From Spirochaetia bacterium (GTDB lineage Bacteria > Spirochaetota > Spirochaetia > CAKZLE01), in the NCBI GenBank assembly GCA_963677595.1, contig OY782041.1, positions 4,128,001-4,192,000 of the forward strand: 64,000 bases of DNA, in the 5' to 3' direction. Shown here piece after piece: positions 5,979 to 45,919 of the stretch (within the stretch, counting starts at the first letter, position 1; the number at the start of each line of letters is the position of its first letter). Both the position numbers and the translations under genes were made by a program. The notes beneath the pieces were generated by a model that saw only the letters and a program-made list of their open reading frames with translations, made no database searches and had not been told where the DNA came from.

Positions 5979-8285
5979 TTATTCCCGGTTCAGGGACCTG
6001 ACAAGATCCTCGACATCCTCATAGCTGACACTTCCGTCAGTGTTCATGTCGATATAGGAGTAGATACCCCAGAAGGTCTTCAGGAGTGATGCCTTCACCA
6101 GGGACCTGTCCTCATCAGCCCCGATGAGGCCATGGTCGAGGAGAAAGGAAAAGACGAGATCGTCAGCCCCGGAGACCCTGAAGATCTCCGTGAACCCGCT
6201 CTCTGTCGTGAGCAACGGGTACTTCTCTACAGGGTTGATCCATGCGATCTCGGCAGTCAGCCTGATATCGCGGCTTGATGATGCAAGACTGATCGTATAG
6301 GTCCCGGATGGGGCATCCCAGGACCCGAGAAGCTCATCATAATAGGCAAAGTCGCGGTACTCAAGCTGGAATTCGACACTTTCTGTCTCGCCCGGCTCCA
6401 AGGAGACCCGGGTGAAGCCTTTCAGTTCCCTGACAGGCCTGGCAACCTCGGGACCAACCTGCCCCACATAGAGCTGGACTATCTCATCTCCGGTACTATT
6501 TCCGGTATTCCTGATGTCCGCACGTATCTGGTACACAACGTCCGTAGTTCCCGAGGCAATCGGTGTTAGTACCATGTGGGAATACTCGAAGTTCGTGTAG
6601 GAAAGTCCGAAGCCGAACGGGAACTGCGGTTCGGTTCCCCGGTAGTCGTAGTAGCGATACCCGACAAATACACTCTCCCCATAGTCCTGCTGGAACCGGT
6701 TTCCTGGGAAGCAGCCATACACTGGAGTGTCCTCCACCCGTGCAGGGAACGTCGCAGACAGCTTGCCTGACGGGGACCTCATCCCGAGCAGGATATCAGC
6801 GAGGGCCCATCCCAGTCCTTCCCCGGCGAACCCTGTGTACAGCAGTCCCTGCACATGGTCTATCCACGGCATCACGACCGCATCACCGGAAGCAAGGACC
6901 ACCACGACGGGGGTACCCCTGCCGGAGAGTTCCTCGATAAGCTCTGAATGGGCTGGTTCGATGGATAGGTCCGTCCTGTTATAAGTATCTGATTCCTCCG
7001 GCAGGCGGCAGCCGGCAAATATGATCACCGTATCGGCTTCCTGTATACGTTCGACTGCCTCAGCCAGATAGGTAGGATTTCTTGACAGGTCAGCGTTATA
7101 ACCGGGAAGGTAATCGATAGAGAAATCATCTCCGGCAGCAGACTGCAGCTCTCCCAGGGGAGAGTCCACCGCAGCAGCATTGATGATGGCACAGCCTGTC
7201 CCCTGGTAGAGCGGGTCCACTGCCAAAGTCCCTACAACACACACCTTCGTTCCGGGCTTCAATGGAAGGACACTCCCTTCATTCTTCAGGAGCACCAGTG
7301 AACGGATGGCCGCTTCCCGGGCAAGTTCATGGTTCCGGGTGAAATCAGCTGCAGCTTGCCGGGGCTGCTGTCCCTGCAGGGAGAAGACGACAGACAGGAT
7401 CCTTTCCACCCGCTCGTCCAGGGCCTCAAGGGAGAGCTCCCCACGTTCATATGCTTGCCTCAAGCGATTGAGTGAAGCATGTGATTCAGGCATATGCAGG
7501 TCCAGTCCGCCATCATGGGCCTTGAGAGGATGCGGCACACCGCCCCAATCACTTATGGTCATCCCCTCGAAGCCCCACTCACCTTTGAGGATATCACGCA
7601 GGATATGATGGTTCTCGGAGGCATATTCCCCGTTCACCTTATTATAGGCTGTCATGACCGCTTTCGGCCTGCCCTTTCTCACGACACGCTCGAAGGAGGA
7701 GAGATAGATCTCCCTGAGAGCCCGTTCATCTATACGGGCATCGACCCTGGTCCGGAAATCATCACTGGTATGGCAGACGAAGTGCTTCGGGCAGGCTCCG
7801 ATCCCCTTGGATGCTAACCCTGAGACCACCGCAGCTCCCAAGTCCCCCGATAGACACGGGTCCTCCGAGTAGTATTCGAAATTCCGTCCCGTGAACGGGT
7901 GACGTCGTATGTTCACACCTGGTCCAAGGAGCAGGGAGATCCCAAGGGTGTGGCACTCATCAGCTATGGCTTGACCAGTCTGCCTGATGAGATCCGTATC
8001 CCAGGAACAGGAGATCGTCGACCCGGAGGGGAAACAGGTTGCCTTATGGGTCTTAGCTAGGGCTTCAGCAGTATCGAACCCCTCGCTGCCGTCGATGAAG
8101 CCTGATGATGACTCACCACCAGACTCTATCTGGAACCGGATTCCGTTCGTCCCGTCGCTCATGATGATCGATGGTATCCCCAGATGGGGGAATGCTGCAG
8201 TCCTCCACAACCCGAGTCCTGTCGTCAGCCTGAGTTTCTCTTCCCATGACATGGCCTGGACCAGCGTTTTGATCGTACTGTCCAT
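5979..8285 (-). CDS. Glycoside hydrolase family 3 (beta-glucosidase-like) with Fn3-like C-terminal domain
   Basis: SDGTNGIR, GRNFEYYSEDP, KHF, SDW nucleophile motif, FVGYRYY, PFGFGLSYT; GAAGGAGG RBS. Confidence 0.92.
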   Translation of the reverse strand: MDSTIKTLVQAMSWEEKLRLTTGLGLWRTAAFPHLGIPSIIMSDGTNGIRFQIESGGESSSGFIDGSEGFDTAEALAKTHKATCFPSGSTISCSWDTDLIRQTGQAIADECHTLGISLLLGPGVNIRRHPFTGRNFEYYSEDPCLSGDLGAAVVSGLASKGIGACPKHFVCHTSDDFRTRVDARIDERALREIYLSSFERVVRKGRPKAVMTAYNKVNGEYASENHHILRDILKGEWGFEGMTISDWGGVPHPLKAHDGGLDLHMPESHASLNRLRQAYERGELSLEALDERVERILSVVFSLQGQQPRQAAADFTRNHELAREAAIRSLVLLKNEGSVLPLKPGTKVCVVGTLAVDPLYQGTGCAIINAAAVDSPLGELQSAAGDDFSIDYLPGYNADLSRNPTYLAEAVERIQEADTVIIFAGCRLPEESDTYNRTDLSIEPAHSELIEELSGRGTPVVVVLASGDAVVMPWIDHVQGLLYTGFAGEGLGWALADILLGMRSPSGKLSATFPARVEDTPVYGCFPGNRFQQDYGESVFVGYRYYDYRGTEPQFPFGFGLSYTNFEYSHMVLTPIASGTTDVVYQIRADIRNTGNSTGDEIVQLYVGQVGPEVARPVRELKGFTRVSLEPGETESVEFQLEYRDFAYYDELLGSWDAPSGTYTISLASSSRDIRLTAEIAWINPVEKYPLLTTESGFTEIFRVSGADDLVFSFLLDHGLIGADEDRSLVKASLLKTFWGIYSYIDMNTDGSVSYEDVEDLVRSLNRE

Positions 8286-8337
8286 CGTAGATCCCTCCTT
8301 CAATGTTTCATGTATGCATCAGCGAGACAGGGTTTTG

Positions 8338-10194
8338 TTATCTCGCAATATGATCGAGCAGCCCAAGTCTCCTCAGCGTACGCTCTTCAGGTTTCCCGCC
8401 CTCATCCCAGCCGCGCAGGGCGTAGTATTCAGATTTCATCCTCTCGAGCTGGTTCACGATTCCCATGTGCTCTCCGGTCGATTCCAGCCCAGTCAGACGG
8501 TCCCCTGTGAATTTCTCGATACTGACTGGTTCATGTAAAAACCGGTCAGGGAGGACATCATCCTCACCGGAAAGTCCCTCGCGCAGGTTGAACAGCCGCT
8601 CCATATTGATGATCCGCTCGCCGAGCGCCATCAATGAGTCGAGTGTGATCTGTTCGCCGAAGATCGCGTTATAGCCTTCCAGGAGATCATCAGGCATGAT
8701 CGCAAAGGTCTCTGGACAGGAGAACTTGCAGAGGCCGAATGAATCAGATAGAGCGTTGAATTCTTCCGAGAACTTCACCAGCTGCGGTTTATGCACCGGA
8801 CTTGTCACTTCCAGGATCTCAGGCAGGAGCTCAGGGAAGAGCTTCTCCGCTGCTTTCAGGTTGTGGGAGACATCCAGAGTCGGCAGTCCATAACCCCAGT
8901 CACCTCCCCAGTTGGATACAGCAAGAGAGAGGCCGAATGCCTGTGACTGGCGCGGTTCCTGGCCGGAGAGCTCGACACCCTTCACTTCCATGGCATATGG
9001 CCGTGTTTCGAGGTGATGCAAGGTAAACTCCCTGCTTCCGTCCCTCAACTCTCCGCCGAGACCTTCACCGGAGACTACTTCTGCAAGAAGGCGTCGTACG
9101 GCGTCTTTGTCTCCCCAAGGGAGTACTCGCCCTTCGAGGAGATCCCGCTGGGAACATTCCATGGCAAAAGCGGTTATTCCACCGAAACCGACCGGATCGA
9201 TCCCATACTTGAGGCACTCCTCATAGATTTCTATGATGAAGGGCAGGTCACCGTTCCCGATCCTGGGACCAAGGCCCCACAATGGTTCATAACCAAGAGC
9301 TTCTGTCACGGTGGTCCCCGTATCGACTCTCTTGATGCATTCGATAGCACATCCGGGACACGGCTTGTTCCCCACGACATACTTCCGCAGCTCTTCCACC
9401 CCGATGGTATCGAGCCCGTCGAAATGGGTGAGCTGGTGGTTGTTCGTCGCCAGGTCCCCCACCTGGTTCTTGCTCTCAAGCAGCATCGCTTTCCCGAGAT
9501 TCTTCAGCTTGACTGAAGCGGGATGCTCCATGACCTGTTTTCTTTTAACCTGTACCAGTCCCTGGAAATCCCTTGGGACCTGCGGATTCGGGGTATTGGG
9601 GTATATCGTCAGGGACTTGAGCTGCTTGCTCCCCATGACAGCTCCCAATCCTGTACGGGGGGAGGTGTGGTATTCGTCGAACACGATGGTCCCGAGCCCG
9701 GCAAGCTGTTCCCCTGCAGGGCCGATGATCGCTGTAGAGGCCCCGGGATATCTCTCCCGCAGGACTACGGAAGTTTCCCGCGTGTCCAACCCCCAGAGAC
9801 CTGCTGCATCCTCGAAATAGACAGAACCCTTCTCGATATGGCAGGAGACCGGCTCTGAGGCCTTTCCGGTGATCACGATCCCCGTAAGGCCTTGACTCGC
9901 AAGGTCCTTGCCAAAGCTTCCCCAGGTGAATGCACCTCCGAGAGCATGGGTGAGGGGAGACTTCGCCGTGATCTGGGTCTGTACGGAACTCGGCCAGTCG
10001 GTCCCGCAGAACGGGCCGATGGTCAAGATCAGGGGATTTGCAGGATCCAGAGCATCTATACCGCTCCTGCAGTATTCGAAGAGAAGCTCGATACCAAGCC
10101 CCCTGCCCCCGATCACCTGTTTCATGACTGCTTCATCGAGCTCCCGCACTTGAGCATCTCGCTTTCCAAGATCTATATGTACAATACGATTCAT
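8338..10194 (-). CDS. Aldehyde:ferredoxin oxidoreductase (tungsten AOR/WOR) family protein 1
   Basis: GGRGLG, KSPLT, GAVMGSKQLK, CxxCxxxC (CPGCAIEC), DSFGLCKF, ERLFNLREG...LPDRF, YYALRGWD; start codon uncertain. Confidence 0.92.
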   Translation of the reverse strand: MNRIVHIDLGKRDAQVRELDEAVMKQVIGGRGLGIELLFEYCRSGIDALDPANPLILTIGPFCGTDWPSSVQTQITAKSPLTHALGGAFTWGSFGKDLASQGLTGIVITGKASEPVSCHIEKGSVYFEDAAGLWGLDTRETSVVLRERYPGASTAIIGPAGEQLAGLGTIVFDEYHTSPRTGLGAVMGSKQLKSLTIYPNTPNPQVPRDFQGLVQVKRKQVMEHPASVKLKNLGKAMLLESKNQVGDLATNNHQLTHFDGLDTIGVEELRKYVVGNKPCPGCAIECIKRVDTGTTVTEALGYEPLWGLGPRIGNGDLPFIIEIYEECLKYGIDPVGFGGITAFAMECSQRDLLEGRVLPWGDKDAVRRLLAEVVSGEGLGGELRDGSREFTLHHLETRPYAMEVKGVELSGQEPRQSQAFGLSLAVSNWGGDWGYGLPTLDVSHNLKAAEKLFPELLPEILEVTSPVHKPQLVKFSEEFNALSDSFGLCKFSCPETFAIMPDDLLEGYNAIFGEQITLDSLMALGERIINMERLFNLREGLSGEDDVLPDRFLHEPVSIEKFTGDRLTGLESTGEHMGIVNQLERMKSEYYALRGWDEGGKPEERTLRRLGLLDHIAR

Positions 10195-10229
10195 GTGATA
10201 TGTGACTCCATGCAATAGGTCGAGCCGAT

Positions 10230-10462: not shown

Positions 10463-11587
10463 CTATACTCCTGCAGCCTTCCTCAGCAGCGCTGAACAGG
10501 CTTCCGGGGAAGCCGGCTTGATGTTGTTCTTCATGAGGAACATCGCAGACCCGATCTTCCCGAGCGCATCGAAGTCCCCTTCTTCCTTCAGCTGGGCCCG
10601 GACCTTCTCCAAGGCTTCCTGCAGTCCCAGCTCCTCCTGCAGGCTTTGCAGGATCGGGATGCAATCTGTATGGTCCTTCCCTCCAAGCAGCACCGCCAGC
10701 TCATCATAGACAGCTTCATTCCCGGCAACATTGAACTCAAGGGCATACGGCAGCAGGAAGGTGTTTCCCAGCCCGTGCGAGACATGCAGCGCACTGCAGA
10801 ACGGCGCTGAGATCGAGTGCACGATCCCCAGACCTCCCAGGTCCATCGCGATCCCAGCCATCATGGCAGCCTTTGCCATATCGCTCCTTGCCTCAAGGTC
10901 ACTCCCGTCCTTCACCACCTTCGCGAGAGAGCCCATGACCAGCTTGATCGCTGATTCGGCCAAGCTCAGGATGATCGGGTTCCGGTTGACGCCCGTGAAC
11001 GCCTCGATCCCGTGCGTGAGCGCATCCATCCCGGTGATCGCCGTCAAAAACGGCGGCAGTCCCGCCATCAGTTCCGGGTCGATCACCGCAAGGTCTGCGA
11101 AGATCGCATCCTGCTTGATCCCCTTCTTCGTGTTCCTGCTCCCGATCACCGCGACCCCGGTAACTTCACTTCCCGTCCCGGCTGTAGTGGGTACGGCAGC
11201 CAATGGCAGCGGGGTGGTCTCAAAGACCCGGTTATTCCACTGGTAGTCTTCCATCGGCCCGTCATTCACCGCCAGGCAGCATGCTGCCTTCGCCGTGTCG
11301 ATCACGCTCCCGCCTCCAAGTGCCACTACTTGACGGTACCCACCATCACGCAGCACCTGTACTAAGGCCATGACCATATCCTCATCAGGGTCAGGCAGCA
11401 CTGCATCATAGATACCAGTCTCCAGCCCTGAATCCTCAAGGGTCTTTTGCATCGTTCCCGCGAGTCCTGCTGCTACCAGCCCCTTGTCGGTGACCAGCAG
11501 CGTCTTCCCATTCCCGAGCGCCTTCGCGATCTCCTTCGATGCCCCTGTTCCCTCTATGATCCGTACCGGAAGGTAAAAACTTGTCAT
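10463..11587 (-). CDS. Iron-containing alcohol dehydrogenase
   Basis: GGGSVID, PTTAGTGSEVT, GMDALTH, H...HG metal ligands. Confidence 0.93.
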   Translation of the reverse strand: MTSFYLPVRIIEGTGASKEIAKALGNGKTLLVTDKGLVAAGLAGTMQKTLEDSGLETGIYDAVLPDPDEDMVMALVQVLRDGGYRQVVALGGGSVIDTAKAACCLAVNDGPMEDYQWNNRVFETTPLPLAAVPTTAGTGSEVTGVAVIGSRNTKKGIKQDAIFADLAVIDPELMAGLPPFLTAITGMDALTHGIEAFTGVNRNPIILSLAESAIKLVMGSLAKVVKDGSDLEARSDMAKAAMMAGIAMDLGGLGIVHSISAPFCSALHVSHGLGNTFLLPYALEFNVAGNEAVYDELAVLLGGKDHTDCIPILQSLQEELGLQEALEKVRAQLKEEGDFDALGKIGSAMFLMKNNIKPASPEACSALLRKAAGV

Positions 11588-11597: not shown

Positions 11598-13079
11598 CTA
11601 TTTCGCGGTGTTGACCCATACCGATCGCAGTTCCGTCACCGCCTCGATCGCGGCCGTCCCGTTATCCCGTCCGTATCCGCTCTCCTTGAACCCGCCGAAC
11701 GGCACGTTCGCCGAGAACATATCATAGGTGTTCACCCAGACGGCTCCGGCCTCAAGCGCAGAGGAGACTCTCATCGCCTTCCCCACGTTTTCAGTCCATA
11801 CCGCAGCGGCCAGCCCGTATCTGGTGTCATTGGCCCGCTCGATCACTTCCTCTTCGGTCTTGAAGGAATAGATGCATACCACCGGCCCGAAGATCTCCTC
11901 TTTCGAGATCACCGCATCATCCGGTACATCCGTGAACACGGTCGGCTCGATATAGTACCCGCCAGACGGCAGGTCCCCGCCGCTCATGGCGTTGCCGCCT
12001 GTTACCAGCGTTCCCTCGTCTTTCCCCGTCTCGATATACTCCATCACTGTCTTGTACTGGTGCTTATCGATGATCGGTCCCAGCACGGTTCCCTCATCCA
12101 TCGCGATCCCCGTCTTGGCTTCCTCGATCTTCTTCAGCAGTCCAGAGAGCACCTGCTCATAGATCCCTTCCTGGACATACAGACGGCTCCCGGCCACGCA
12201 GCTCTGCCCGGTATTCCCGAAAGCTGCCAGAAACGCTCCGTTGACCGCTTTCTCGATATCGGCATCGTTGAAGACGATGTTCGGCGCCTTGCTCCCCAGT
12301 TCGAGGGTCACCCGTTTCAGGTCCTCTGCCCCCGCCTTGATGATCGCCTTCCCTACCGGCGTTGATCCCGTGATCTGTACTTTCCGGATTCCCGGATGAT
12401 GTGCGATCGCGTTCCCGATCACACTTCCCCTTCCCGTCACGATGTTCAACACTCCTGCCGGCATCCCAGCCTCGCAAGCCAGTTCCCCCAGCCTGAGGAT
12501 ACATAATGACGCCACTGATGCCGGCTTGATGATCACGCAGTTCCCTGCTGCCAGCGCAGGGCCCGCCTTCTGAGAGAAGTGGATCAACGGGTAGTTCCAC
12601 GGCAGGATGATACCTATCGTACCAAGCGGGTGCCGCGTCGAATAGACGAACAGGTTCGGGATAGAAACAGGGATCGTTTCTCCGTTGATCCTGCTCGGGA
12701 TCCCTGAGGCATGCATCATATTCCGCGATGATACCGGTGCGTCGATCTTCATCGTATGGTTGATCGGTTTCCCCGTCTCCAGCGATTCGAGCTGCGCCAG
12801 CTCATCCTGATGTACTTCGATCAGCTGCGCAAACTTCCGAAGAACACTCTCACGGTACCCCGGTGCCGCTTTTGACCAACCCGGGAAAGCTGCTGCTGCA
12901 GCTGCTACAGCCGCATCGACATCAGACGCATCTGACGATGCGGTCAGCCCCAACCGGCTCCCGTCCGAGGCATTCCTCGCTGCCGCCTGTCCCCCGCTTA
13001 TCGCCGGGACGAAGGCCCCGCCTATCAGGTTCCCTTTCGCTTCACGTAAGAAACCCTCTACCTGTTCCAACATCTCCAT
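11598..13079 (-). CDS. NAD(P)-dependent aldehyde dehydrogenase
   Basis: PWNYP, TGSTPVG, LELGSK, GQSC catalytic Cys, EEIFGP, PFGGFKESG. Confidence 0.95.
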   Translation of the reverse strand: MEMLEQVEGFLREAKGNLIGGAFVPAISGGQAAARNASDGSRLGLTASSDASDVDAAVAAAAAAFPGWSKAAPGYRESVLRKFAQLIEVHQDELAQLESLETGKPINHTMKIDAPVSSRNMMHASGIPSRINGETIPVSIPNLFVYSTRHPLGTIGIILPWNYPLIHFSQKAGPALAAGNCVIIKPASVASLCILRLGELACEAGMPAGVLNIVTGRGSVIGNAIAHHPGIRKVQITGSTPVGKAIIKAGAEDLKRVTLELGSKAPNIVFNDADIEKAVNGAFLAAFGNTGQSCVAGSRLYVQEGIYEQVLSGLLKKIEEAKTGIAMDEGTVLGPIIDKHQYKTVMEYIETGKDEGTLVTGGNAMSGGDLPSGGYYIEPTVFTDVPDDAVISKEEIFGPVVCIYSFKTEEEVIERANDTRYGLAAAVWTENVGKAMRVSSALEAGAVWVNTYDMFSANVPFGGFKESGYGRDNGTAAIEAVTELRSVWVNTAK

Positions 13080-13122
13080 CTTCTCCACCTCGTTATCTCT
13101 ATATCGTCTCTTCCGTATTCTG

Positions 13123-14463: not shown

Positions 14464-14548
14464 CCCCTTATTCGTTATTCTTATCATGACCATTCTACCA
14501 AGCTGAATCAATAGATGCAAAAAGAATCAACCAGCATGCAATACCTGG

Positions 14549-14923: not shown

Positions 14924-14996
14924 TGTATTCACCTCTTATTCATAAAATCATTCACGGTCATCGTTGTCCTCTATGATAACCGCCTCCATCCTGCAC

Positions 14997-18131: not shown

Positions 18132-18204
18132 AACACGTTCCTTATAGCTTTCCAGGTGCCAAGTGATCAAAACACATCCTGTACGCAATCAGCCCTGAAG
18201 TATG

Positions 18205-26050: not shown

Positions 26051-26065
26051 GTGTTCCATCCTCCC

Positions 26066-32197: not shown

Positions 32198-32262
32198 ACC
32201 ACAATCGACAAGAGATCCCTACCTTCCAGATACCAAATCTGTACCTATCGCCAGTCTATAAA

Positions 32263-32277
32263 GCATAAACCATGCCA
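32263..32277 (-). promoter_or_regulatory. Possible sigma54 -24/-12 promoter
   Basis: Minus strand TGGCATGGTTTATGC (GG-N10-GC). Confidence 0.35.
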
Positions 32278-34102: not shown

Positions 34103-34121
34103 GCAGGAACTGGGAGGTCCT

Positions 34122-36791: not shown

Positions 36792-36806
36792 GTTGTCTGC
36801 TCCTTC

Positions 36807-39122
36807 TTACTGATTATTACGTTCGCAGGTTGTCTGCTCTGCCAGGAAGCCCAGTACATCGTCCGCGGTCACGGGAAGGGAGGTGAAATCACTTCCCAAT
36901 GCATCATTCACGGCATTGATGATCGCCCCCGCCCCCGGGACGGTTGCGCATTCACCGATACTCTTCCCGCCGTAGGGTCCCGGGTACTCTACCCCCTCGA
37001 TGAAGTCAAGGGAGATCGATGCAGGCATTTGAGCAGGCGAGACCATATGGTACCGCTTCAGGTGCCCGTTCTTCAGGGCACCTCCCTCATCGAAGACGAG
37101 CTGTTCTGACAGCGCATAACCTGCTGACATATGGATCCCGCCCTCGAGCTGCCCTTCGATGCCGAGTCGGTTGATCACCTTCCCGACATCATGGACCGCG
37201 GCATAGTCGGTCAGGGAGATGCGTCCGCTCTTCGGGTCGACCAGCACTTCGGCAAAGTGGGCCCCGTATGAGCAGCGTTCGGCCTCGTTCGCATGGGATT
37301 CGGTAAGGGAGAGCCATGTCTGCCTCTTGAGGTGGATCTGCCGCATGAGTTCGCTTCGGGAGAGCATGGCAGTCCCATCCTCTCGGGCATATACGGCATC
37401 CTCAGAGAGCTCGAGCCTGTCAGCATCCAATCCGAGCAGTTCTGCTGCTTCAGTGAGGATACGCTCCCTCATGGAGACGGCAGCCTTCCTGGCTGCTTCC
37501 CCGGAGACGAAGACACCACGGCTCGCATAGTCCCCGAGGTTCCAAGGGCAGAGTTCGGTATCGGAATCGACGGCACGAATCGAAGAGATTGGTACACGCA
37601 GTTCCTCAGCGATGATCATCTTCTGAACCGTCACGGACCCGTTCCCCATATCATGGGTCCCGGTGAAGAAGAGGACGGAACCGTCCTCATTCACCGTGAT
37701 GCGGATCCCGGTGTAGTCCACATGGGCAGGGAATACCCCATTCCCGTAGATCCCGACTGACATCCCTACCCCGCGCAAGTTCCCGTCGACAGGGGAGCTG
37801 CATCGTCGCAATCTATCTTCCCAGTCGAAGAGCTCAGCTCCCCGCTTTACACAGACTATCGGCTGCGGCCTGCCGAAGGAGTGGCCGTAGACGGGATGGA
37901 CACTCTCAGGGGTCACGAGATGCTTCAGCTGGTAGGCGACTGGGTCGATGCCATACGCCCTGGCGATGTTCGTCATATTCGTCTCCAGGGCGAAGTTCAA
38001 CTGGGGTGACCCGTATCCCCTCATAGCCCCGGCTACGGGCATATTGGTGTACAACGGCGTGATGTGAATCCTGTAGTTCGGGAACCGGTAGAGGTTGACG
38101 ATCTTGTGGGCAGTCGCGGCAGCGACATTATGGCTCTGGGTAGCGTAAGCTCCGGCATTGAGCAACATGCGGATATCCTGGGCAAGGATGTTCCCATCTG
38201 TATCGACAGCTGTACGTACCGTCACCGCTGATGCATGGCGGGTCCGTGTGGCGATGAAGGTCTCTTTCCTGGTAAGGACCAGTTTGACCGGTCTCCCGGT
38301 CGCCAGGGCACCGCACACGACGATCGGCTCAAGGATCATCGGGATCTTGGAACCAAAGGCCCCGCCGAGCGGCGGCTTGATGACCCGTATCTCATGACGG
38401 GGCCGGCCAAAGAGGTCGGAAAGCAGCATCCGAACCGCAAAGGTCGTCTGGGTCGTGCTCCATACCGTGATCTTCCCGCTGCTGTCCGTCTCGGCTATGG
38501 CCCCATGGGGTTCCAGGGCCAGGTGGTGGATCGCAGGGGTACTGGTCGTATGGGTGAACACCCGTTCAGCTTCAGAGAATGCGTCCTCAACCTCCCCATA
38601 CCCGACGATGACATCAGCGATATGGTTGGTACCAAGCTCAGGATGGACCAGCGGTCCATCATCATCGGCGAAGGTGGTCTGCGCCGGGAGGTCTCGGTAG
38701 TGCACGGTGATCATCCTGACCGCACGTTCTGCCTGCTCTACGGTGTCAGCCGCGACAGCGGCAACCCGGTCCCCGATGAACCGAACGGTCCGGGAGAATA
38801 CCTGCTCATCCTCGATGATCTCCTGCCCGTCGAACCGCTTCGCACTGTTATACTGCTGCTGAGGTGTGTTCTTCCAGCAGAACACAGCATGGACTCCCGG
38901 CGCCTGCTCAGCGGCAGTCGTATCGATCTCCTCGATGAAGGCATGGGCATGGTCAGAGAGCAGCAGCTTCATGTGCAGCATACCCGGCCGCTCCATATCG
39001 TCGATATACTCGAGCGTACCGAGGGCCTTGGCCTTCGCATCATGGACCGGAACACTGGTGCCGATCACCCTGAGAGCTTCATGGGATACAGCGTTCCTGA
39101 CTGATGCTTCTCTTCTTTCCAT
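36807..39122 (-). CDS. Xanthine dehydrogenase family molybdopterin-binding (large) subunit
   Basis: GGAFGSK, AMRGYGSPQ, DMGNG, ASRG, GQLEGG, GKSIGE catalytic Glu. Confidence 0.93.
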   Translation of the reverse strand: MERREASVRNAVSHEALRVIGTSVPVHDAKAKALGTLEYIDDMERPGMLHMKLLLSDHAHAFIEEIDTTAAEQAPGVHAVFCWKNTPQQQYNSAKRFDGQEIIEDEQVFSRTVRFIGDRVAAVAADTVEQAERAVRMITVHYRDLPAQTTFADDDGPLVHPELGTNHIADVIVGYGEVEDAFSEAERVFTHTTSTPAIHHLALEPHGAIAETDSSGKITVWSTTQTTFAVRMLLSDLFGRPRHEIRVIKPPLGGAFGSKIPMILEPIVVCGALATGRPVKLVLTRKETFIATRTRHASAVTVRTAVDTDGNILAQDIRMLLNAGAYATQSHNVAAATAHKIVNLYRFPNYRIHITPLYTNMPVAGAMRGYGSPQLNFALETNMTNIARAYGIDPVAYQLKHLVTPESVHPVYGHSFGRPQPIVCVKRGAELFDWEDRLRRCSSPVDGNLRGVGMSVGIYGNGVFPAHVDYTGIRITVNEDGSVLFFTGTHDMGNGSVTVQKMIIAEELRVPISSIRAVDSDTELCPWNLGDYASRGVFVSGEAARKAAVSMRERILTEAAELLGLDADRLELSEDAVYAREDGTAMLSRSELMRQIHLKRQTWLSLTESHANEAERCSYGAHFAEVLVDPKSGRISLTDYAAVHDVGKVINRLGIEGQLEGGIHMSAGYALSEQLVFDEGGALKNGHLKRYHMVSPAQMPASISLDFIEGVEYPGPYGGKSIGECATVPGAGAIINAVNDALGSDFTSLPVTADDVLGFLAEQTTCERNNQ

Positions 39123-39134
39123 CCTCTTTCCTGT

Positions 39135-39854
39135 CTAGAAATGATTGATCATGCTGAAGTCTATGATCGTGGGGTTGAACACGATCTCATTATAGCAGAT
39201 GAGATTGTCATGAAGATCATAGAACAACTCGTCCCATACGACCAGGGGGGTCAGTGACCCGATCTTGAACATCTCACTCGCCGCAAGGTCATGTGCCGCC
39301 CGCCACCAGATGGTGGTGAAGGCATACTCAAGGTTACACAGCTTCATAAACCGATCCTTCAGGGTCAATGGCGGGATGTTGTCATCGAAGGGATTCACCA
39401 CAAGGGCCTGCGGGGTCTCGACCCGGCAGATGATCGCCGGGGTATCATCGGCATAGTAGTTCCAGTCGAACGCATAGACATCCCCGCCCCGTATCTCGGG
39501 GATACGGTGTGCGAACAGCTCGGTCGCCTTCGCATTCCGGCTGTGGGACTGCGTCACGGATACCCGATACCCACAGCGTGCGAGGAGGGTCCTGAAATTC
39601 ATATCCTGGTCGATCCGCATCTCCATGTCACAGACTCTCGGATGGCCGAACACGCCCTTCCCCTGCCAGCGAGTAATATACCCGTCACCCACCAGGTCAT
39701 CCATGGCCTGCCTGACGGTGGCCCTGCTCGCCCCCAGTTCCTCGGCCAGCTCCTGCTCGGTCTTGAGCTTGTTGCTGCCGGGCTTCAGGGCGCAGATGGT
39801 CTTGAGGAGCTGTTTCTTGATCAACTGGTATTTCGGTACTCTTGGTTGCGTCAT
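39135..39854 (-). CDS. GntR-family regulator (HutC/UTRA-like)
   Basis: TEQELAEELGASRATVRQAM..L..GYI....GKGVF wHTH. Confidence 0.9.
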   Translation of the reverse strand: MTQPRVPKYQLIKKQLLKTICALKPGSNKLKTEQELAEELGASRATVRQAMDDLVGDGYITRWQGKGVFGHPRVCDMEMRIDQDMNFRTLLARCGYRVSVTQSHSRNAKATELFAHRIPEIRGGDVYAFDWNYYADDTPAIICRVETPQALVVNPFDDNIPPLTLKDRFMKLCNLEYAFTTIWWRAAHDLAASEMFKIGSLTPLVVWDELFYDLHDNLICYNEIVFNPTIIDFSMINHF

Positions 39855-39909: not shown

Positions 39910-41436
39910 TTAATGGACGATTTCTTCAAGACGTTCCCCGGCCATCATCAGGCCGACAGTCTCGATGGAGACCTCCTTCGGGTCGACCTCGCCCATGATC
40001 TCCCCGTGGCACAGCACGATCAGGCGGTCAGCAAGCGTCATCAGCTCATCGAGTTCCGTGGAGATGTACAGGACTGCCGTCCCCTGGTCTCGCTGGGTGA
40101 TGATCTGCTTGTGGACATACTCGATGGCGCCTACATCCAGTCCCCTGGTAGCATGCATCGCCGTGACAATGACCGGTTCGCCGTGCAGCTCACGGGCGAG
40201 GACCAGCTTCTGCTGGTTCCCACCGGAGAGGCTTGAGACCTTCACGTCGATACTGGGTGTCCTCACATCGAACTTCTCGATGTTCGTTTGGGTGTGCTTC
40301 CTGATGAAAGGCCAGTCGAGCCGACTCTTCCGTGAATGGGGCTCACGGTAGTAGTCATTGGACATGAAGTTCTCCTTGATATCGAGGTCGAGGACGAGGC
40401 CTCGCACATGCCGGTCCTCTGGTATATGGGCCAGCCCCTTCTCCAGGATACTCCTGGGAGTATGACCTGTGATATCCTCACCATTGAGGCAGACCTTCCC
40501 TTCCGTGGGGTTCCGCAAGCCGGTCACTACCTCGAGCAGTTCGCTCTGGCCGTTCCCGTCAACTCCAGCGACACCGACGATCTCCCCTGCATGGACACAC
40601 ATCGAGACCTGTTTGAGTGCCGGCAGTCCCTTGTTATTGTTGGCACAGAGGTTCTGCAGGGTCAGCACGTCCTTGCCTGCTTTACAGGTGCACTTCTCTA
40701 CCTCGAAGTTAACCTCCCTGCCGACCATCAGGCTGGCAAGCTCTCGTTTCGTGAGGTCAGGGGTATTGTCCAGGGTCTCGACGAGCCGGCCTCGGCGAAG
40801 GACAGAGATTCTGTCACTGATCTTGAGGACCTCATCCATCTTATGGCTGATGAAGATCACCGAGAACTCCTGGTCGAGGAACATCCGGATCATGCGGAAG
40901 AGTTCCGTGATCTCCCCCGGGGTAAGTACGGCAGTCGGTTCATCGAGGACGAGGACCCGTGCCCCGCGGTAGAGAGCCTTGATGATCTCCACCCGCTGCT
41001 GCTCGCCCACTGAGAGCTGCCAGACAGGGGTATGCGGGTCAAGGTGCATGCCGTAGGTCTTGGCGAACGCAACGATCTCGTCGGCTGCCTTGTTGATCTG
41101 GAGCAGCGGTTCATGCGCCCGCTTGATTCCCAGCATGATATTCTCGGCTACCGTCAGCTGCGGGACCAGCATGAAATGCTGGTAGACCATCCCGATCCCC
41201 TTCCTGATAGCATCCCGGGCAGTCTCGAAGGCAACATGCTCCCCGCCGAGCTCGATCGACCCGCCGGTCGGGCGGATGACCCCGGAGAGGATGTTCATCA
41301 GCGTGCTCTTCCCGGCACCGTTCTCACCGAGCAGGGAATGGACTTCCCCCTTTCTCAGCGTGAAGTTGATATGGTCGTTGGCGACGACTCCCGGGTAGAC
41401 CTTGGTGATATCTACCATCTTCAGTATGTCCTGCAT
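39910..41436 (-). CDS. Nucleoside-type (CUT2/Nup) ABC transporter ATPase
   Basis: GENGAGKS, LDEPTAVL, LSGGNQQK; paralog of 1173-2705. Confidence 0.93.
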   Translation of the reverse strand: MQDILKMVDITKVYPGVVANDHINFTLRKGEVHSLLGENGAGKSTLMNILSGVIRPTGGSIELGGEHVAFETARDAIRKGIGMVYQHFMLVPQLTVAENIMLGIKRAHEPLLQINKAADEIVAFAKTYGMHLDPHTPVWQLSVGEQQRVEIIKALYRGARVLVLDEPTAVLTPGEITELFRMIRMFLDQEFSVIFISHKMDEVLKISDRISVLRRGRLVETLDNTPDLTKRELASLMVGREVNFEVEKCTCKAGKDVLTLQNLCANNNKGLPALKQVSMCVHAGEIVGVAGVDGNGQSELLEVVTGLRNPTEGKVCLNGEDITGHTPRSILEKGLAHIPEDRHVRGLVLDLDIKENFMSNDYYREPHSRKSRLDWPFIRKHTQTNIEKFDVRTPSIDVKVSSLSGGNQQKLVLARELHGEPVIVTAMHATRGLDVGAIEYVHKQIITQRDQGTAVLYISTELDELMTLADRLIVLCHGEIMGEVDPKEVSIETVGLMMAGERLEEIVH

Positions 41437-41446
41437 GGTCACCTCC

Positions 41447-42385
41447 CTAGTTCTCGCCGCTGTCGAACGGCTTCCCGGAGGCCGCAGGGGCCTGGGACTT
41501 CCCTACCAGCCCGGAAAGGGCCAGGATCGTGAGGATGTACGGCACCATCATAAGGAACTGGTAGGGGATGGCACTCCCTGCTGTCTGCATCTTGATCTGT
41601 ACGGCATCCCCAAGGCCGAAGACCAGGGTCGCGGCAAGGATACCCCAGGGGTTCCATTTCCCGAAAATGACTGCTGCCAGGGCTATATACCCGCGACCGC
41701 TCACCATGTTCTCAGAGAAGAGGTTGAGCAGTCCGAGCGACATGAGCCCTCCCCCGGCCCCGACGAGAAACGAACCGCTGATGATCGTCGAATAGCGGAT
41801 GCCGACCACGCTGATGCCTGCCGTGTCTGCAGCATGGGGATGCTCCCCGACTGACCGGATCTTGAGGCCGGTCGTGGTCTTCTGGAAGATCCATTGGATG
41901 AGCGGTACGGCAAGCAGCCCAAGATAGACAGGGACCATCTGACCAAAGAGAATCTCCCCGATCACCGGTATATCGCTGAGCCATGGGATATGGATGTTGT
42001 TGAAGCCCGGAGCCCTCGCTGCCTGGCTCGATACCCCGAAGATCGTTCGGTTCAATGTCGAAGTCAGGCCAAGGGCGATGATGTTCAAGGCAATACCGGT
42101 CACGATCTGGTTCGCCCGGAGCGTGACGACGATATAGGCGAAGAGGATCCCGACGATCATCCCAGTGAATCCCGCGAAGAGGATCCCCATCCACGGACTT
42201 GCGAACACCCGGGCAAAGAAGACCGCTGAGAAGGTCCCGAAGAGCATCGTCCCCTCGCACCCGATATTGACGACACCGCTCTTCTCCATGATCACCAGCC
42301 CGAGGGCTGCGATCAGGATGGGAGCTGAGGTCCTTAGGTCAGTCGCGAGCAGGTAGGTGAAGACTTCCAGTATCCTATCCATCAC
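41447..42385 (-). CDS. Nucleoside-type ABC permease
   Basis: EKSGVVNIGCEG, GRGYIALAAVIFGKW. Confidence 0.9.
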   Translation of the reverse strand: MMDRILEVFTYLLATDLRTSAPILIAALGLVIMEKSGVVNIGCEGTMLFGTFSAVFFARVFASPWMGILFAGFTGMIVGILFAYIVVTLRANQIVTGIALNIIALGLTSTLNRTIFGVSSQAARAPGFNNIHIPWLSDIPVIGEILFGQMVPVYLGLLAVPLIQWIFQKTTTGLKIRSVGEHPHAADTAGISVVGIRYSTIISGSFLVGAGGGLMSLGLLNLFSENMVSGRGYIALAAVIFGKWNPWGILAATLVFGLGDAVQIKMQTAGSAIPYQFLMMVPYILTILALSGLVGKSQAPAASGKPFDSGEN

Positions 42386-43479
42386 TGAACCTCCTCATTC
42401 GCATGTTCCGTACTCGCAAGGAGCCGCCTCATGTTTCGCTTCTGGAAGAACTGCACATTCTGTCCGATGATAACGAACAGGATGACCAGCCCCTGAAGCA
42501 CGTAGATGACCGATACCGGGACCTTGGCAAGAAGCTGCATCCGGTTTCCCCCGGCACGGAGGAATCCGAAGAGCAGGGCTCCAAGCCCAATCCCGACCGG
42601 TGCATTCAACCCGACCAAGGATACGGCGACCCCGTCAAAACCGTAGCCTGGGGAGAATGCCTGGAGCAGGCGTCCCTGGATCCCCAGGATCTCGACTGCA
42701 CCCGCAAGTCCTCCCATGCTCCCAGCGAGGACCATCGCCAGCAGCATGGTCCGCTCTGGATGCATCCCGGCAGCCCGGGCAGCTTCCATATTATGCCCGA
42801 CGACCCGGATCTCATACCCTTGACGCATCTTCCAGATGAAGAAGTAGTAGAAGACCAGTGCCGCGACGGCGATGAAGAACCCTGCGTGGAGGCGTGTTCC
42901 TGGTATGATCCTGATGAGGGTGGCTGAGTCCAGGATAGGCCGGCTCTCCGGCATGGTGCCTTCAGGAGCCCGCATCGGTCCGGTTACCAGGTAGCTGACC
43001 AAGAAGAGTGCTATATAGTTCAGCATGACGGTCGTGATGATCTCATTTGCCCCGAATCGGACCTTGAGCCAGCCGACGAGGCCTCCCCAGGCGGCCCCGC
43101 CGAGGGCTGCAGCCAGGACGGCTAACGGGAGATGGATGACCATGGGCAGGCCGGCGAAGTTCGTGCCGACCAAAGTCGCCATGATGCCCCCTACATAAAG
43201 CTGTCCCTCAGCCCCGATATTGATCAGGCCGGCCTTGGCGGCGTAGGCATAGCTGAGTCCGGTCAGGATCAGCGGAGTCATCTTCACCAGGGTCTCACAG
43301 ACGGCATTCAGGTTCCCGAACGCCCCGCTGAGGAGGGCTTTATAAGCCTTTACCGGTGAGATCCCTATCATCTTGATGACCAGAGCACCTATAAGGAAAG
43401 CGATCAGGATCGATATTCCCTGTATCAGGATGGGGCGAAGGGTTATTGGGCGAAGTTTCTGCTGGTTGCTGGTATTCAT
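42382..43479 (-). CDS. Nucleoside-type ABC permease
   Basis: NIGAEGQ, NEIITTVMLNYIA, GYGFDG. Confidence 0.9.
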   Translation of the reverse strand: MNTSNQQKLRPITLRPILIQGISILIAFLIGALVIKMIGISPVKAYKALLSGAFGNLNAVCETLVKMTPLILTGLSYAYAAKAGLINIGAEGQLYVGGIMATLVGTNFAGLPMVIHLPLAVLAAALGGAAWGGLVGWLKVRFGANEIITTVMLNYIALFLVSYLVTGPMRAPEGTMPESRPILDSATLIRIIPGTRLHAGFFIAVAALVFYYFFIWKMRQGYEIRVVGHNMEAARAAGMHPERTMLLAMVLAGSMGGLAGAVEILGIQGRLLQAFSPGYGFDGVAVSLVGLNAPVGIGLGALLFGFLRAGGNRMQLLAKVPVSVIYVLQGLVILFVIIGQNVQFFQKRNMRRLLASTEHANEEVQ

Positions 43480-43544
43480 ACAATCCTCATATTCGAATCA
43501 TACCGTTTTGGGCATTCTCAGGTGAATACTGCATGGTCGCAGCT

Positions 43545-43573
43545 GCTCCACCTGTCCTGCAGGCAGGTGGAGC
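43545..43573. other. Intergenic stem-loop downstream of the BMP gene (probable mRNA stability element)
   Basis: GCTCCACCTG...CAGGTGGAGC 10-bp perfect inverted repeat. Confidence 0.5.
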
Positions 43574-43595
43574 TGTTGGTTATGGTAAGATTCCC

Positions 43596-44591
43596 TTATT
43601 CGTACTGTGAGACGTCAAGGGACCCGTCTACCAGCGCTGCAAGGATAGTCTCGATCTGCTCGAGCTGGTCTGCTGAAAGCTCATCAGCCTTCTCCCTGAA
43701 CGGGGCAAGGGCTACGGCATTCTCTGCGAAACCGATGAGGTAGTTCTTGGGTGTGAAGGTCCCGTCAAGGATCTCATTGATCACCAGTTCGTGGCCTGCA
43801 GGCATATCCTCGGTCACACTGGTGAGGATCACGTCCCGAGCCTCAGGTACGGTCTCGTACAGGTCACCGGAAGAACCGATCACGTATGCGCCAGCTTCCT
43901 CAACAGCCTCGATGATACCATGGTTGGTCTCATCAGCATCGGCAACGATGACATCAGCGCCCTCGGCGATGAGGGACTTCGTCATCTCCTTGCCCTTTGC
44001 GATATCGGTGAAGTCACCGGTAAGCAGGAACTTCGCATCGATGTCAGGGTTGACATATTTGGCCCCGGCAACGAATCCCTTCCCCTGGTTCACGATCGGC
44101 GGGATCTCCATCCCCCCGACGAAGCCAACGACACCGGTCTTGGAAGCGATAGCAGCGACAGCACCCTGTACGAACCCGCACTGGAAGTCATACACAAGGA
44201 AGGACCCGAGGTTAGGAGACTGGGAGATGTCAGTACTGTTGATGATGAAGGTGACATCGGGGAAATCAGGGGCGACTTTCTGTGCCGGTGCCCCAAACTC
44301 GAACCCGTGCCCGAAGATGACATCGTAGCCGCTCTCTGCGTATCCGCGGAAGATCTCTTCGTAATCAGAAGCAGGTGTCCGCTCGGTATACGCCATCTCA
44401 GCACCAAACGCCTCTTCCTGGTGCAGCAGTGAGTTATACATCAGGGTATTCCATCCACCGTCATTGATAGGTCCGGGGAGAAGTCCTGCGATCTTCAGCT
44501 GGTCATCAGCAGCTTCCTCTTTAGCACCTGCCGCGAAGACAGTCATACAAGCCAGAATAAGAACTGTTACAAGCAACAATGACTTTTTCAT
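43596..44591 (-). CDS. BMP/PnrA-family solute-binding protein
   Basis: Signal 'VFAAGAKE'; PGPINDGGWN, GHGFEF, GFVGG, GADVI. Confidence 0.9.
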   Translation of the reverse strand: MKKSLLLVTVLILACMTVFAAGAKEEAADDQLKIAGLLPGPINDGGWNTLMYNSLLHQEEAFGAEMAYTERTPASDYEEIFRGYAESGYDVIFGHGFEFGAPAQKVAPDFPDVTFIINSTDISQSPNLGSFLVYDFQCGFVQGAVAAIASKTGVVGFVGGMEIPPIVNQGKGFVAGAKYVNPDIDAKFLLTGDFTDIAKGKEMTKSLIAEGADVIVADADETNHGIIEAVEEAGAYVIGSSGDLYETVPEARDVILTSVTEDMPAGHELVINEILDGTFTPKNYLIGFAENAVALAPFREKADELSADQLEQIETILAALVDGSLDVSQYE

Positions 44592-44686
44592 TGTTTCCTC
44601 CTTGTGTGATTAATGGATTCATATTATCATACAAGTATATGGTTATCAAGATAAATATATATTTGTTTTAAATATTGAGGATTTGT

Positions 44687-45919
44687 ATGTATGAATTATT
44701 GATCACAAACTGTTCGATACCTAATCAGGGCACCAAGGATATTGCCTGTACCAATGGGAAGATCTCCCAAATCGCCGACGCTATTGAGCATACTGCGGCA
44801 AAACAGCTGTATGACGCAGGGGGGAACACGGTACTGCCGTCGTTCATCGACATCCATACCCACACCGACAAGACCCTGCTCTCAGACCGCCTGGAAAACC
44901 GATCCGGGACCCTGCCGGAAGCGGTGAAGCGTACGGGTGAGTACTTTCTGACGGCTGATGGGGAGGATTTCATAGAACGCGGGGAGAAGATGGTCCATAT
45001 GGCAGCAGATCACGGGACGCTCACGCTGCGGTCACATGTGTCAGTACAGGTCCCATTCGGGCTGAAGATCTGGGAAGCGACACGGGTGGTCCAGGAGCGC
45101 TGCAGGGGATTCGCTGACCTGCAGCTCGTTGCCTTTCCCGGGGCTGCAGATACCCTTGTCCCAGGCAATGAGACCTGGAAGCTGCTCGATGCAGCCCTCG
45201 ATGATAACGGAGCCGCCCTGGGCGGATGCCCCACCCTGAGCAATGATCATCGGGCATTCATCGATTCTCTCATCAAACTAGCCAAAGAACATGGGTGCAA
45301 ACTCGACCTCCATGTTGATGAGCATGACCGTCCCAATGCCTCGGTACTCGAGTACCTCGCCGATGCGACCATACGTGAAGGGATGCAGGGACGAGTCATA
45401 GCCGGGCACTGCACCTCACTGTCGGCAGCACCCCAACAGGATGCGGACCGCATCATCGGCAAGGTGCGAGATGCCGGCATCCATATCGTCACGCTCCCCT
45501 CCTGCAACCTCTTCCTGATGGGAAGGAATGATCGGGGGCTCATCCGACGCGGGATCACCAGGGTCTCTGAACTCCTCTCCGCCGGGGTCAATGTCTCTCT
45601 CGCCTCTGATAACATACGGGACCCGTTCAGGCCGTTCGGTAACGGCAACCTCCTCGAGGAGGCCTACCTGACCGGTCAACTCCTCCAGGCGGCTTCCAAA
45701 GAGGAGTTGCTGAAGGTGATCGACATGATCACGATCAACCCGGCGTCTGCCATGGGGCTGGAAGGATATGGTTTGAAGGAAGGGAACCCGGCGAACCTGG
45801 TCGTGCTGGGTCAGCCGGGATTGTATGAAGCCCTGCTCGCGCAGGATGCGGTTCAGGCAGTAGTCTCGAAGGGCAGGATCATCACCGAGCGGAAGAGTAC
45901 GATCACACGAAACCGCTAG
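44687..45919 (+). CDS. Cytosine-deaminase-like amidohydrolase (pterin/creatinine/AtzC-type motifs)
   Basis: HTHTDK, RSHV, DLHVDE, GHC, ASDNIRDPF; GAGGA RBS before ATG 44687. Confidence 0.88.
   Translation: MYELLITNCSIPNQGTKDIACTNGKISQIADAIEHTAAKQLYDAGGNTVLPSFIDIHTHTDKTLLSDRLENRSGTLPEAVKRTGEYFLTADGEDFIERGEKMVHMAADHGTLTLRSHVSVQVPFGLKIWEATRVVQERCRGFADLQLVAFPGAADTLVPGNETWKLLDAALDDNGAALGGCPTLSNDHRAFIDSLIKLAKEHGCKLDLHVDEHDRPNASVLEYLADATIREGMQGRVIAGHCTSLSAAPQQDADRIIGKVRDAGIHIVTLPSCNLFLMGRNDRGLIRRGITRVSELLSAGVNVSLASDNIRDPFRPFGNGNLLEEAYLTGQLLQAASKEELLKVIDMITINPASAMGLEGYGLKEGNPANLVVLGQPGLYEALLAQDAVQAVVSKGRIITERKSTITRNR

Follow-up and report, generated by a model that had tools for sequence, protein, structure and literature searches.

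A conserved anaerobic heterocycle-degrading gene system in a Spirochaetia genome, with pteridines as candidate substrates

Cluster I of Cupriavidus sp. LA-1 serves pterin and lumazine degradation in aerobic soil bacteria, and in it an amidohydrolase-2 isomerase, DHLI, contracts the ring to xanthine-8-carboxylate (PMC12391406). The reductive urate (2,8-dioxopurine, yanthine) pathway is set out, in the accessible parts of its descriptions, as XdhD/XdhAC, YgfK or UacX, SsnA, HyuA, YgeW or UacY, YgeY and YgeX (PMC12507026, PMC12990295), and is treated also in the accessible part of a preprint (bioRxiv 2025.04.24.650524). Here we describe a gene system that we compare with both, found in the Spirochaetia bacterium assembly GCA_963677595.1. 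The window, meaning the whole stretch of DNA analysed, comprises 64,000 nt of contig OY782041.1 (4,128,001–4,192,000, forward strand); it lies in a single-contig genome, 95.4% complete, here called G000, and the genomes and genomic loci compared with it carry G- and L-numbers. A first-pass annotation had proposed an anaerobic pteridine-catabolic island at window positions 5979..45919, and every gene class it listed was recovered there.

Together with the 20 kb on their left, these genes make up a conserved anaerobic heterocycle-degrading system. Judging from gene content, active-site residues, protein clades and co-occurrence, we give an even chance to the reading that the system breaks down pteridines without oxygen, via lumazines to reductive ring opening. 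We prefer this reading because it uses all the conserved parts with the fewest assumptions. In the literature covered, mostly papers outside subscription, we found none on a Gln-type FolB, on the UbiD clade described below or on an anaerobic pteridine cluster, and the system is apparently undescribed so far. Within that literature, the earlier remark that no anaerobic pterin cluster had been described still holds for anaerobes; an aerobic soil pterin cluster with deaminase, xanthine oxidoreductase (XOR) and UbiD/UbiX has been described (PMC12391406).

FolB proteins with a Gln ring anchor

FolB and urate oxidase have the T-fold in common, and FolB carries the motif GxxxxExxxxQ, according to the accessible part of PMC2229834. 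The five FolBs of the island are the only ones in G000, and all five score above the PF02152 cut-off. The first-pass count of five is right; they fall into three kinds rather than five, FolB0, FolBa and FolBb, the tautomerase–FolBa–FolBb unit being present twice through tandem duplication (75–90% DNA identity). By alignment, the position that anchors the ring is Gln in 5/5 island FolBs versus Glu in solved dihydroneopterin aldolases (DHNAs). The anchor Glu of FolB binds the N3-H and 2-amino group of pterin, and urate oxidase, also a T-fold protein, binds its oxo-substituted ring through a Gln. The Gln anchor is most simply explained by a lumazine-type ligand, as first proposed.

FolB0 retains the GxxxxExxxxQ motif and the equivalents of Glu22, Tyr54 and Lys100 (S. 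aureus numbering), and its predicted model (pLDDT 89) superimposes on the DHNA 1dhn with a TM score of 0.79. Among its close homologues (22 of 23 hits aligned, FolB0 included), the anchor is Gln in 21/22 sequences and Asn in 1, and nearly all retain the three aldolase residues; one Gln-type homologue (P0006, 67%) is labelled Candidatus Ranarchaeia archaeon. FolBa has the anchor Gln, Glu22 replaced by Gln, the Lys kept and a GGGGF loop; FolBb has the anchor Gln, the same Glu22 replacement and Lys100 changed to Glu. Fused FolB–FolB proteins occur in G412, G416 and G417 (L013:10001–10729, L222:9086–9844, L227:5683–6417), with aldehyde:ferredoxin oxidoreductase (AOR), iron-sulfur flavoprotein (ISF) and BMP importer genes. 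Because such two-domain forms occur, the sequences suggest FolB rings built of unequal subunits. Island AOR1 is 47% identical to AOR2 and 48–53% to the AORs beside the fused FolBs, and DUF6506-like genes come after two of the three fused genes.

Gln-type domains are 12/148 of those typed among the best 150 representative hits. A quick 129-row tree needs 4 changes to account for its 58 non-Glu rows, where shuffling gives 42.6 on average, and most of these rows share one branch. FolBa falls outside this main Gln clade, so a single origin of Gln-type FolBs is not established. Glu occupies the anchor of the FolBb in L221 and of a Gln-clade FolB at L004:9847–13171, which is followed by a serine hydroxymethyltransferase (SHMT) and a PALP enzyme.

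No folE, folK or folP had been noted in the window, and the same is true of the whole genome: tblastn against G000 found none of the three, the HPPK family had 0 matches, and the only Pterin_bind match sits in a 1210-aa frame that is MetH-like by size. Because these genes were not found, the island FolBs are unlikely to serve folate synthesis. Gene context was compared in 164 typed loci, three of the Glu-type loci with a fol gene having supplied queries and 48 Glu-type loci being shorter than 5 kb. Here folE, folP or folK lay near the Gln-type FolB in 0/12 loci versus 121/152 for the Glu type, and at least two island gene classes (transporter subunits included) lay nearby in 10/12 versus 1/152, this one being L004, itself a Gln-clade member. 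Several Gln-FolB carriers also have a canonical FolB. At L003, unlike at the other loci, the Gln-type FolB is flanked by CbiZ and by a FecCD-type ABC importer. A metagenome scan with a FolBa alignment returned Glu-type FolBs only (80/80 loci), so the context of FolBa rests on G000, L067 and L221. The anchor Gln, the missing folate genes and the locus context together uphold the catabolic rather than folate-biosynthetic role claimed at first pass, and in genome annotation Gln-type FolBs, whatever their substrate, should not count as evidence of folate synthesis.

A UbiD clade and a second urate-type gene set

The two island UbiDs have the three UbiD domains, the catalytic Arg and EGP-x-x-E motifs, and a UbiX partner is present. 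UbiD1 and UbiD2 group with their orthologues on a single branch of a quick 50-row tree (SH-aLRT 100), separate from XCDC-like, HmfF-like, purinolytic and quinone-type UbiDs. The nearest solved relative is 6h6v (E 8e-81), which we take to be the furan-dicarboxylate decarboxylase HmfF, and several database entries label UbiDs of the island clade as furan decarboxylases. UbiX may be shared, because the island copy is the only one found in G000 (no second at E<1e-20) and a third, quinone-type UbiD lies outside the island at C1:2724821–2726266. In a clostridial order sample the best UbiD reached 38% (383 scored of 401 genomes). The plasmid matches to UbiD that were inspected comprised two hmf-type clusters, one unannotated record, two of ubiquinone type, one unrelated and two LA-1-like.

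Conservation in other genomes, on which the first-pass annotation had made its proposal depend, was found. A clade UbiD at at least 47% is present in 10/13 Gln-clade genomes, 0/26 Glu-type controls and 0/5 relatives. In one class of 28 genomes it occurs in 6, among them all 4 Gln-FolB genomes, two of which were not preselected. The system is scattered over three phyla (Bacillota, spirochaetes and Chloroflexota), and since records from named Moorella/Neomoorella and Thermanaeromonas contain parts of it, experiments on cultured bacteria should be feasible. The closest match is an Oceanispirochaeta assembly (L067, L235), at 65–88% for most shared genes. Nearer kin mostly lack the system (0/5 order-level relatives and 0/2 same-genus genomes have it), and in a phylum sample 4/400 other genomes had FolB matches, all Glu-type and none Gln-type.

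The ring hydroxylation/reduction step of the first-pass scheme exists as a separate and better conserved module, which lies upstream of the window. The left boundary first drawn was wrong, as the conserved system spans window positions 1–5913 and about 20 kb further left (G000:C1:4107971–4128000; L001/L002). This extension holds a YgeW-like carbamoyltransferase, two PreA-like, two SsnA-like and two YgeY genes, three xanthine dehydrogenase (XDH) Mo subunits and a fifth ISF, in two parallel paralogue sets, XdhMoB-SsnA1-PreA1-YgeW-YgeY1 and XdhMoC-PreA2-AmH-YgeY2. The second set occurs with a Gln-FolB and without a clade UbiD in L012 and partly in L010. G000 also encodes canonical YgeW, XdhD, SsnA, YgeY and YgfK, above cut-offs, at 3.96–3.98 Mb, in a canonical 2,8-dioxopurine cluster (C1:3961492–3977109). 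The island SsnA-like protein reaches 217 of 444 bits and the YgeW-like one 203 of 453, and the XDH-like proteins are also well below family cut-offs; the two upstream YgeY genes exceed the NF009555 cut-off.

The urate-type paralogues reassemble around UbiD in L005, L229, L232, L233/L265, L234, L237, L257 and L302 and form a block of their own in L288–L294. A single G407 operon (L232) matches AmH1, XDH, YgeY, PreA, aldehyde dehydrogenase (ALDH), UbiD, Fe-containing alcohol dehydrogenase (Fe-ADH), ISF, SsnA and YgeW. Beside some copies lie a carbamate-kinase-sized amino-acid-kinase gene (L237) and a serine dehydratase gene (L258), neighbours that fit an energy-yielding breakdown. In G418, where YgeW is missing, an Amidohydro_3 protein lies between the SsnA-like and YgeY genes, the same swap as that of YgeW and UacY in the accessible part of PMC12507026. 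This regrouping of the same orthologues around UbiD makes it highly improbable that the locus is a patchwork of unrelated catabolic operons in one genome, as does the SsnA-like orthologue, which accompanies clade UbiD in 14/14 genomes versus 0/31 others in a set of our own choosing. A patchwork origin does hold for the GH3, sugar ABC/LacI and MATE genes, and the variable gene order, the modules split in many genomes and the two same-genus genomes lacking the system speak for it more generally.

The island PreA-like genes belong to PF01180, the Pfam family of C. difficile UacX, and some carriers have them fused to a PreT-like part. The NxSCPH loop, which is present in the canonical PreA of G000, and the INT Asn of canonical PreA are both missing in 14/14 island-type PreA rows. 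This loop is the catalytic loop of PreA/PydA, and the Asn binds uracil. Loss of the loop speaks against uracil as the compound reduced and is consistent with a ring C=N being reduced. It bears as well on whether the substrates are 5-substituted pyrimidines (5-hydroxymethyl-cytosine or -uracil, their glucosides or the thiamine pyrimidine), which would be deaminated, oxidized to the 5-carboxylate, decarboxylated and reductively broken down. That the top solved match of the CodA-like deaminase is 4r7w and that of the NMT1 protein is ThiY, that the GH3 enzyme could remove glucose, and that MCH and SHMT genes nearby may reflect one-carbon handling are all in keeping with such substrates. We consider them quite unlikely, as both PreA features are gone, GH3 and NMT1 are barely conserved, and several XDHs and FolB would be left without a role.

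Since the ring module consists of paralogues of purine enzymes, occurs without Gln-FolB and has as its nearest solved UbiD a five-membered-ring decarboxylase (6h6v), another fused pyrimidine has to be weighed, namely 8-substituted xanthines or guanines or 7-deazapurines (preQ0, preQ1, 7-carboxy-7-deazaguanine). UbiD would then remove a ring carboxylate and the urate paralogues would open the ring, with Gln-FolB a side-chain or binding accessory; solved DHNAs do bind guanine and 9-methylguanine, by their structure titles. TubF is a UbiD that acts on a deazaguanine acid. It is named in the tree legend of PMC12391406. We nevertheless regard this class of substrate as unlikely. FolB0 and nearly all its close homologues keep the three aldolase residues, the island genes include no radical-SAM queuine lyase, plain purines are already covered by the canonical cluster in G000, and the purinolytic UbiD of L282 is only 34–35% identical, its isochorismatase, cyclase and FTCD not being in the island. 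Moreover, we know of no abundant natural purines with an aldol-cleavable C8 polyol.

Gene layout and a proposed pathway

The features of the system within the window are as follows (position, strand, description).

1..710, +: XDH FAD subunit; frame begins upstream at G000 4127916; partner of the upstream XdhMoC
700..1155, +: XDH 2Fe-2S subunit
1173..5913, +: BMP/PnrA-type ABC importer 1 (ATPase, two permeases, binding protein)
5979..8303, -: GH3 glycosidase, 34 bp downstream of AOR1
8338..10215, -: aldehyde:ferredoxin oxidoreductase AOR1
10230-10439, -: 69-aa open reading frame between Fe-ADH and AOR1, without Pfam match
10463..11587, -: Fe-containing alcohol dehydrogenase
11598..13088, -: aldehyde dehydrogenase
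13123..14520, -: UbiD1, prenylated-FMN (prFMN) decarboxylase of the distinct clade
14549..14932, -: FolB0
14997..16970, -: AOR2; listed start overlaps ISF1 by 116 bp
16855..17496, -: iron-sulfur flavoprotein ISF1
17541..18188, -: flavodoxin-2 family NAD(P)H oxidoreductase, 60% match in L235
18392..22646, -: sugar ABC permeases, binding protein and LacI
22975..24354, -: MATE exporter
24588..25608, -: tautomerase-FolBa-FolBb copy 2 (FolBs 24588-24956 and 24953-25384; tautomerase 25414-25608)
25682..26743, -: tautomerase-FolBa-FolBb copy 1 (FolBs 25682-26059 and 26066-26479; tautomerase 26546-26743)
27126..28460, -: UbiD2, second subclade of the UbiD1 clade
28520..31368, -: NMT1/THI5-type ABC importer
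31446..33251: ISF2 (-) and ISF3 (+)
33248..34691, +: RpiR regulator and UbiX prenyltransferase (UbiX 34122-34691)
34688..36091, -: AmH1, AtzA/8-oxoguanine-deaminase-like amidohydrolase
36120..39854, -: ISF4, XdhA-like Mo subunit (36807-39122) and GntR regulator
39910..44591, -: BMP/PnrA-type ABC importer 2
44675..45919, +: CodA-like deaminase with SDNI motif

The island inventory is thus 5 FolB, 2 UbiD, UbiX, Fe-ADH, ALDH, 2 AOR, 2 amidohydrolases, an XDH Mo subunit, 2 tautomerases of the 4-OT family, 4 ISF-type flavoproteins with the Cys motif and GH3, with importers of the NMT1/THI5, BMP and sugar ABC types. ISF, AOR, FolB0, UbiD, ALDH and ADH form a closely packed run, with gaps of 10–34 bp from FolB0 to ADH; because of its overlap with ISF1, AOR2 probably starts later than listed. 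The XDH FAD subunit has the YgfM-like TIGR03312 as its best NCBIfam match, below cut-off. AmH1 has the motifs HxHxxQ, HxSE and SDG and orthologues at 54–63% in related clusters; the HxHxxQ motif presumably marks it as a deaminase of guanine-, pterin- or cytosine-type rings, no more. The CodA-like deaminase is the best G000 match (36.5%) for the CDA-like gene of an LA-1-type cluster, and two plasmid CodA matches (H34, H41) were rejected as lying outside pterin clusters.

The pathway that we propose from these genes, each step and the order of steps being inferred, would begin with uptake of pterins by the BMP and NMT1 ABC systems. AmH1 or the CodA-like enzyme would remove the 2-amino group to give lumazines. 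Because FolB0 keeps its aldolase residues and has Gln in place of the Glu that reads the 2-amino group, it would act on the lumazine form, with a retro-aldol cleavage at C1'–C2' of (dihydro)neo- or biolumazine to a 6-hydroxymethyl compound and an aldehyde; the ISF flavoproteins may set the ring redox state. ADH with ALDH or AOR would then produce the 6-carboxylate or, alternatively, act on the released aldehyde, and UbiD1 with UbiX would decarboxylate the acid to the bare ring, unless UbiD acts later, on a pyrazine acid after ring opening. XDH-type enzymes may add or remove ring oxygens, with a urate-style removal of the C4 oxygen; the PreA/UacX-like flavoenzyme would reduce a ring C=N, the SsnA-like hydrolase would open the pyrimidine ring, and the YgeW-like transferase and YgeY would strip the ureido group to yield carbamoyl phosphate. 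Compounds with a different side chain may enter separately through tautomerase–FolBa–FolBb–UbiD2 and the NMT1 importer, FolBa and FolBb then serving as subunits that are not equivalent. For pteridines, steps by a deaminase, an XOR and a prFMN enzyme have been described before (PMC12391406), and PMC9513972 puts forward lumazine-6-carboxylate as a possible product of folate breakdown.

Parts of the first-pass scheme fell away. Deglycosylation by GH3 is dropped, because GH3 has no counterpart in the regions fetched from 17 related genomes; nor has the sugar importer, which is probably a passenger. LacI is likewise not conserved, and neither is MATE, with a single 23% match in one of those regions. 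The NMT1/THI5 importer, whose binding protein has ThiY (3ix1) as nearest solved relative, is conserved (76–86%) only in L067. BMP importers resembling importer 1 adjoin Gln-type FolB in L007, L009 and L224.

MCH-family genes, not found in G000, occur in 13/17 carrier genomes versus 1/28 others, with 13 matches in G412, and pairs of them, one full and one divergent, adjoin Gln-FolB in L006:7522–9340, L007:12014–13768, L009, L012, L015, L224 and L239. Acetoin-dehydrogenase-like E1/E2 genes often accompany these pairs. A DeoC/LacD-family aldolase stands beside the system in L013, L227, L259, L288, L302 and L008, often with an FGGY kinase and Zn-alcohol dehydrogenases, and may handle the released polyol. 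An Rfam scan found no riboswitch in the window and upstream block; in L006 a purine riboswitch precedes a permease on the opposite strand. Further right, a low-GC block (window 51083–59131; 0.43–0.45 against 0.55 genome-wide) encodes two sulfatases, a sugar ABC importer and a ROK regulator and adjoins an rRNA operon (59389–64000), and an isolated 5S rRNA gene (47734–47847) lies 11.5 kb from the operon's own 5S.

The aldolase and E1/E2 neighbours are part of what a flavin or N8-ribityl-lumazine would explain, its ribityl chain passing to polyol enzymes and its dimethyl fragment to the acetoin-dehydrogenase-like complex. E1/E2 genes recur beside Gln-FolB and MCH (L009, L015, L239), the system has a class I aldolase nearby at L013, L227, L259, L288 and L302, in many cases along with an FGGY kinase and Zn-ADHs, and the Gln anchor suits a 2,4-dioxo ring. 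Lumazine synthase was not found in G000, and the BMP and NMT1 families include riboflavin binders. We hold this entry substrate to be rather unlikely, since FolB chemistry needs a C-linked diol and not an N-ribityl chain, deaminase-type genes are conserved in the system, RibF and the class I aldolase are not in the G000 island, and the Rfam scan of five regions found no FMN riboswitch. The fin neighbourhood of C. scindens does have a class I aldolase, ADH and ALDH, while FolB and UbiD go unmentioned, in the accessible part of PMC13492142.

Several observations weigh against pteridines as substrates. Characterised pteridine enzymes are all distant from those of the island: AmH1 is 32% identical to a PDA-like gene, for which the best match in G000 (38%) belongs to the canonical purine cluster, and the island UbiDs are 28–30% to XCDC-like ones and nearer to HmfF-like ones (35–37%; widest 35–39%). 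The Gln anchor suits any 2-oxo ring (xanthine, uracil, flavin), the putative role of the residue being drawn from general T-fold knowledge; the transporter matches are uninformative on substrate; the Gln-FolB of L003 (9258–13730) sits among cobalamin-salvage-like genes; and no diaminopropionate ammonia-lyase scores above cut-off anywhere in G000. Selection of the comparison genomes depended in part on the feature itself, and related genomes do not count as independent cases. Gln-FolB and UbiD are often far apart or on different contigs, and 3/13 Gln-clade genomes (G413–G415, small draft assemblies) have no clade UbiD, two of them having instead the second SsnA-like paralogue, in one case with PreA2, XdhMoC and YgeY2. 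Conversely, the ring module occurs without Gln-FolB in G464, G466, G919 and G1212, including two Chloroflexota, and of 6/401 sampled Chloroflexota with strong UbiD matches, 0/6 have Gln-FolB and 2/6 have SsnA/PreA neighbours. FolB therefore has the look of a side branch that feeds a core acting on a ring acid or a precursor of one.

Pteridines, the substrates in the preferred reading, are made by all cells as pterins and folates and shed into sediments, digesters and guts, and in the literature covered we found a genetic route for their breakdown only in aerobic soil bacteria. The system would name candidate enzymes for an anaerobic sink: the FolB subfamily with its single retuned residue, the UbiD clade and the additional urate-like module for ring opening. 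More tentatively, it could amount to a complete O2-independent pteridine fermentation across Bacillota, spirochaetes and Chloroflexota, in which a lumazine-specific FolB subfamily and hetero-oligomeric FolBa/FolBb strip neopterin, biopterin, folate or methanopterin remnants, the new UbiD clade decarboxylates the ring acid, the duplicated urate-type module opens the ring with ATP gained via carbamoyl phosphate, and MCH-like pairs are repurposed.

Comparison with known systems

Canonical FolB (PF02152, TIGR00525) and the island proteins have the T-fold and DHNA structure in common, and FolB0 the motif, Tyr and Lys as well. The island differs in its anchor Gln, in having no folK/folP/folE context, and in the loss of Glu22 in FolBa and FolBb and of Lys100 in FolBb. 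HmfF, as 6h6v, is the nearest solved relative of the island UbiDs, which form a separate branch (35–39%), and the CoA ligase and enoyl-CoA hydratase of hmf-type clusters are not in the island. The island PreA-like proteins, unlike PreA/PydA of the reductive pyrimidine pathway, are without the catalytic loop and the uracil-binding Asn. RibF, the class I aldolase and the glycine-reductase subunits of the C. scindens fin neighbourhood, as far as its accessible description goes, are not in the island by Pfam/NCBIfam.

The Rabinowitz purinolytic pathway of the C. cylindrosporum type, reportedly treated by Tong et al. in 2023, is likewise an anaerobic breakdown of N-heterocycles with XDH, amidohydrolases and a prFMN decarboxylase. 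L282 (G492:C2:53001–73000), presumably a look-alike cluster of this type, encodes UbiD, UbiX, isochorismatase, an allantoinase-like protein, FTCD, cyclase, adenine deaminase and microcompartment shell genes. Its UbiD is 34–35% identical to those of the island, which contains neither its isochorismatase, cyclase and FTCD nor its microcompartment genes.

With LA-1 cluster I the system has in common an XOR-family Mo enzyme and UbiD/UbiX, and would also share with it a pterin deaminase, nucleobase import and entry via lumazines; LA-1 is without FolB, whereas the island has PreA, SsnA, YgeW and YgeY paralogues. DHLI of LA-1 is an amidohydrolase-2 pair with a GTP-binding maturase; none of the 4 Amidohydro_2 genes of G000 lies in the island, the best match to DHLI being 21–23%, and the island UbiDs are 28–30% to XCDC and of another clade, compared through look-alike clusters rather than LA-1's own sequence. 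These LA-1-type lumazine clusters are L270 (Sinorhizobium meliloti plasmid) and L271 (Burkholderia plasmid), and a matching UbiD recurs in many Sinorhizobium records. The LA-1-type genes for the CDA-like deaminase and the LuDH-type XOR (XDH Mo) do find their best G000 matches in the system, at 36.5% and 37.6% (XdhMoA), too low for orthology.

With the 2,8-dioxopurine pathway, the likeness lies in XDH, a DHO_dh-family ring reductase, SsnA-like, YgeW-like and YgeY-family proteins and the swap of YgeW for Amidohydro_3. The island SsnA-, YgeW- and XDH-like proteins are, however, below cut-offs and tied to UbiD, deaminases and Gln-FolB; HyuA- and YgeX-like genes were not found in the island (HyuA being sought there only), and TIGR03528 was not above cut-off in G000. 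The system qualifies as a member of neither; in its proposed operation it resembles a cross between LA-1 cluster I and the 2,8-dioxopurine pathway.

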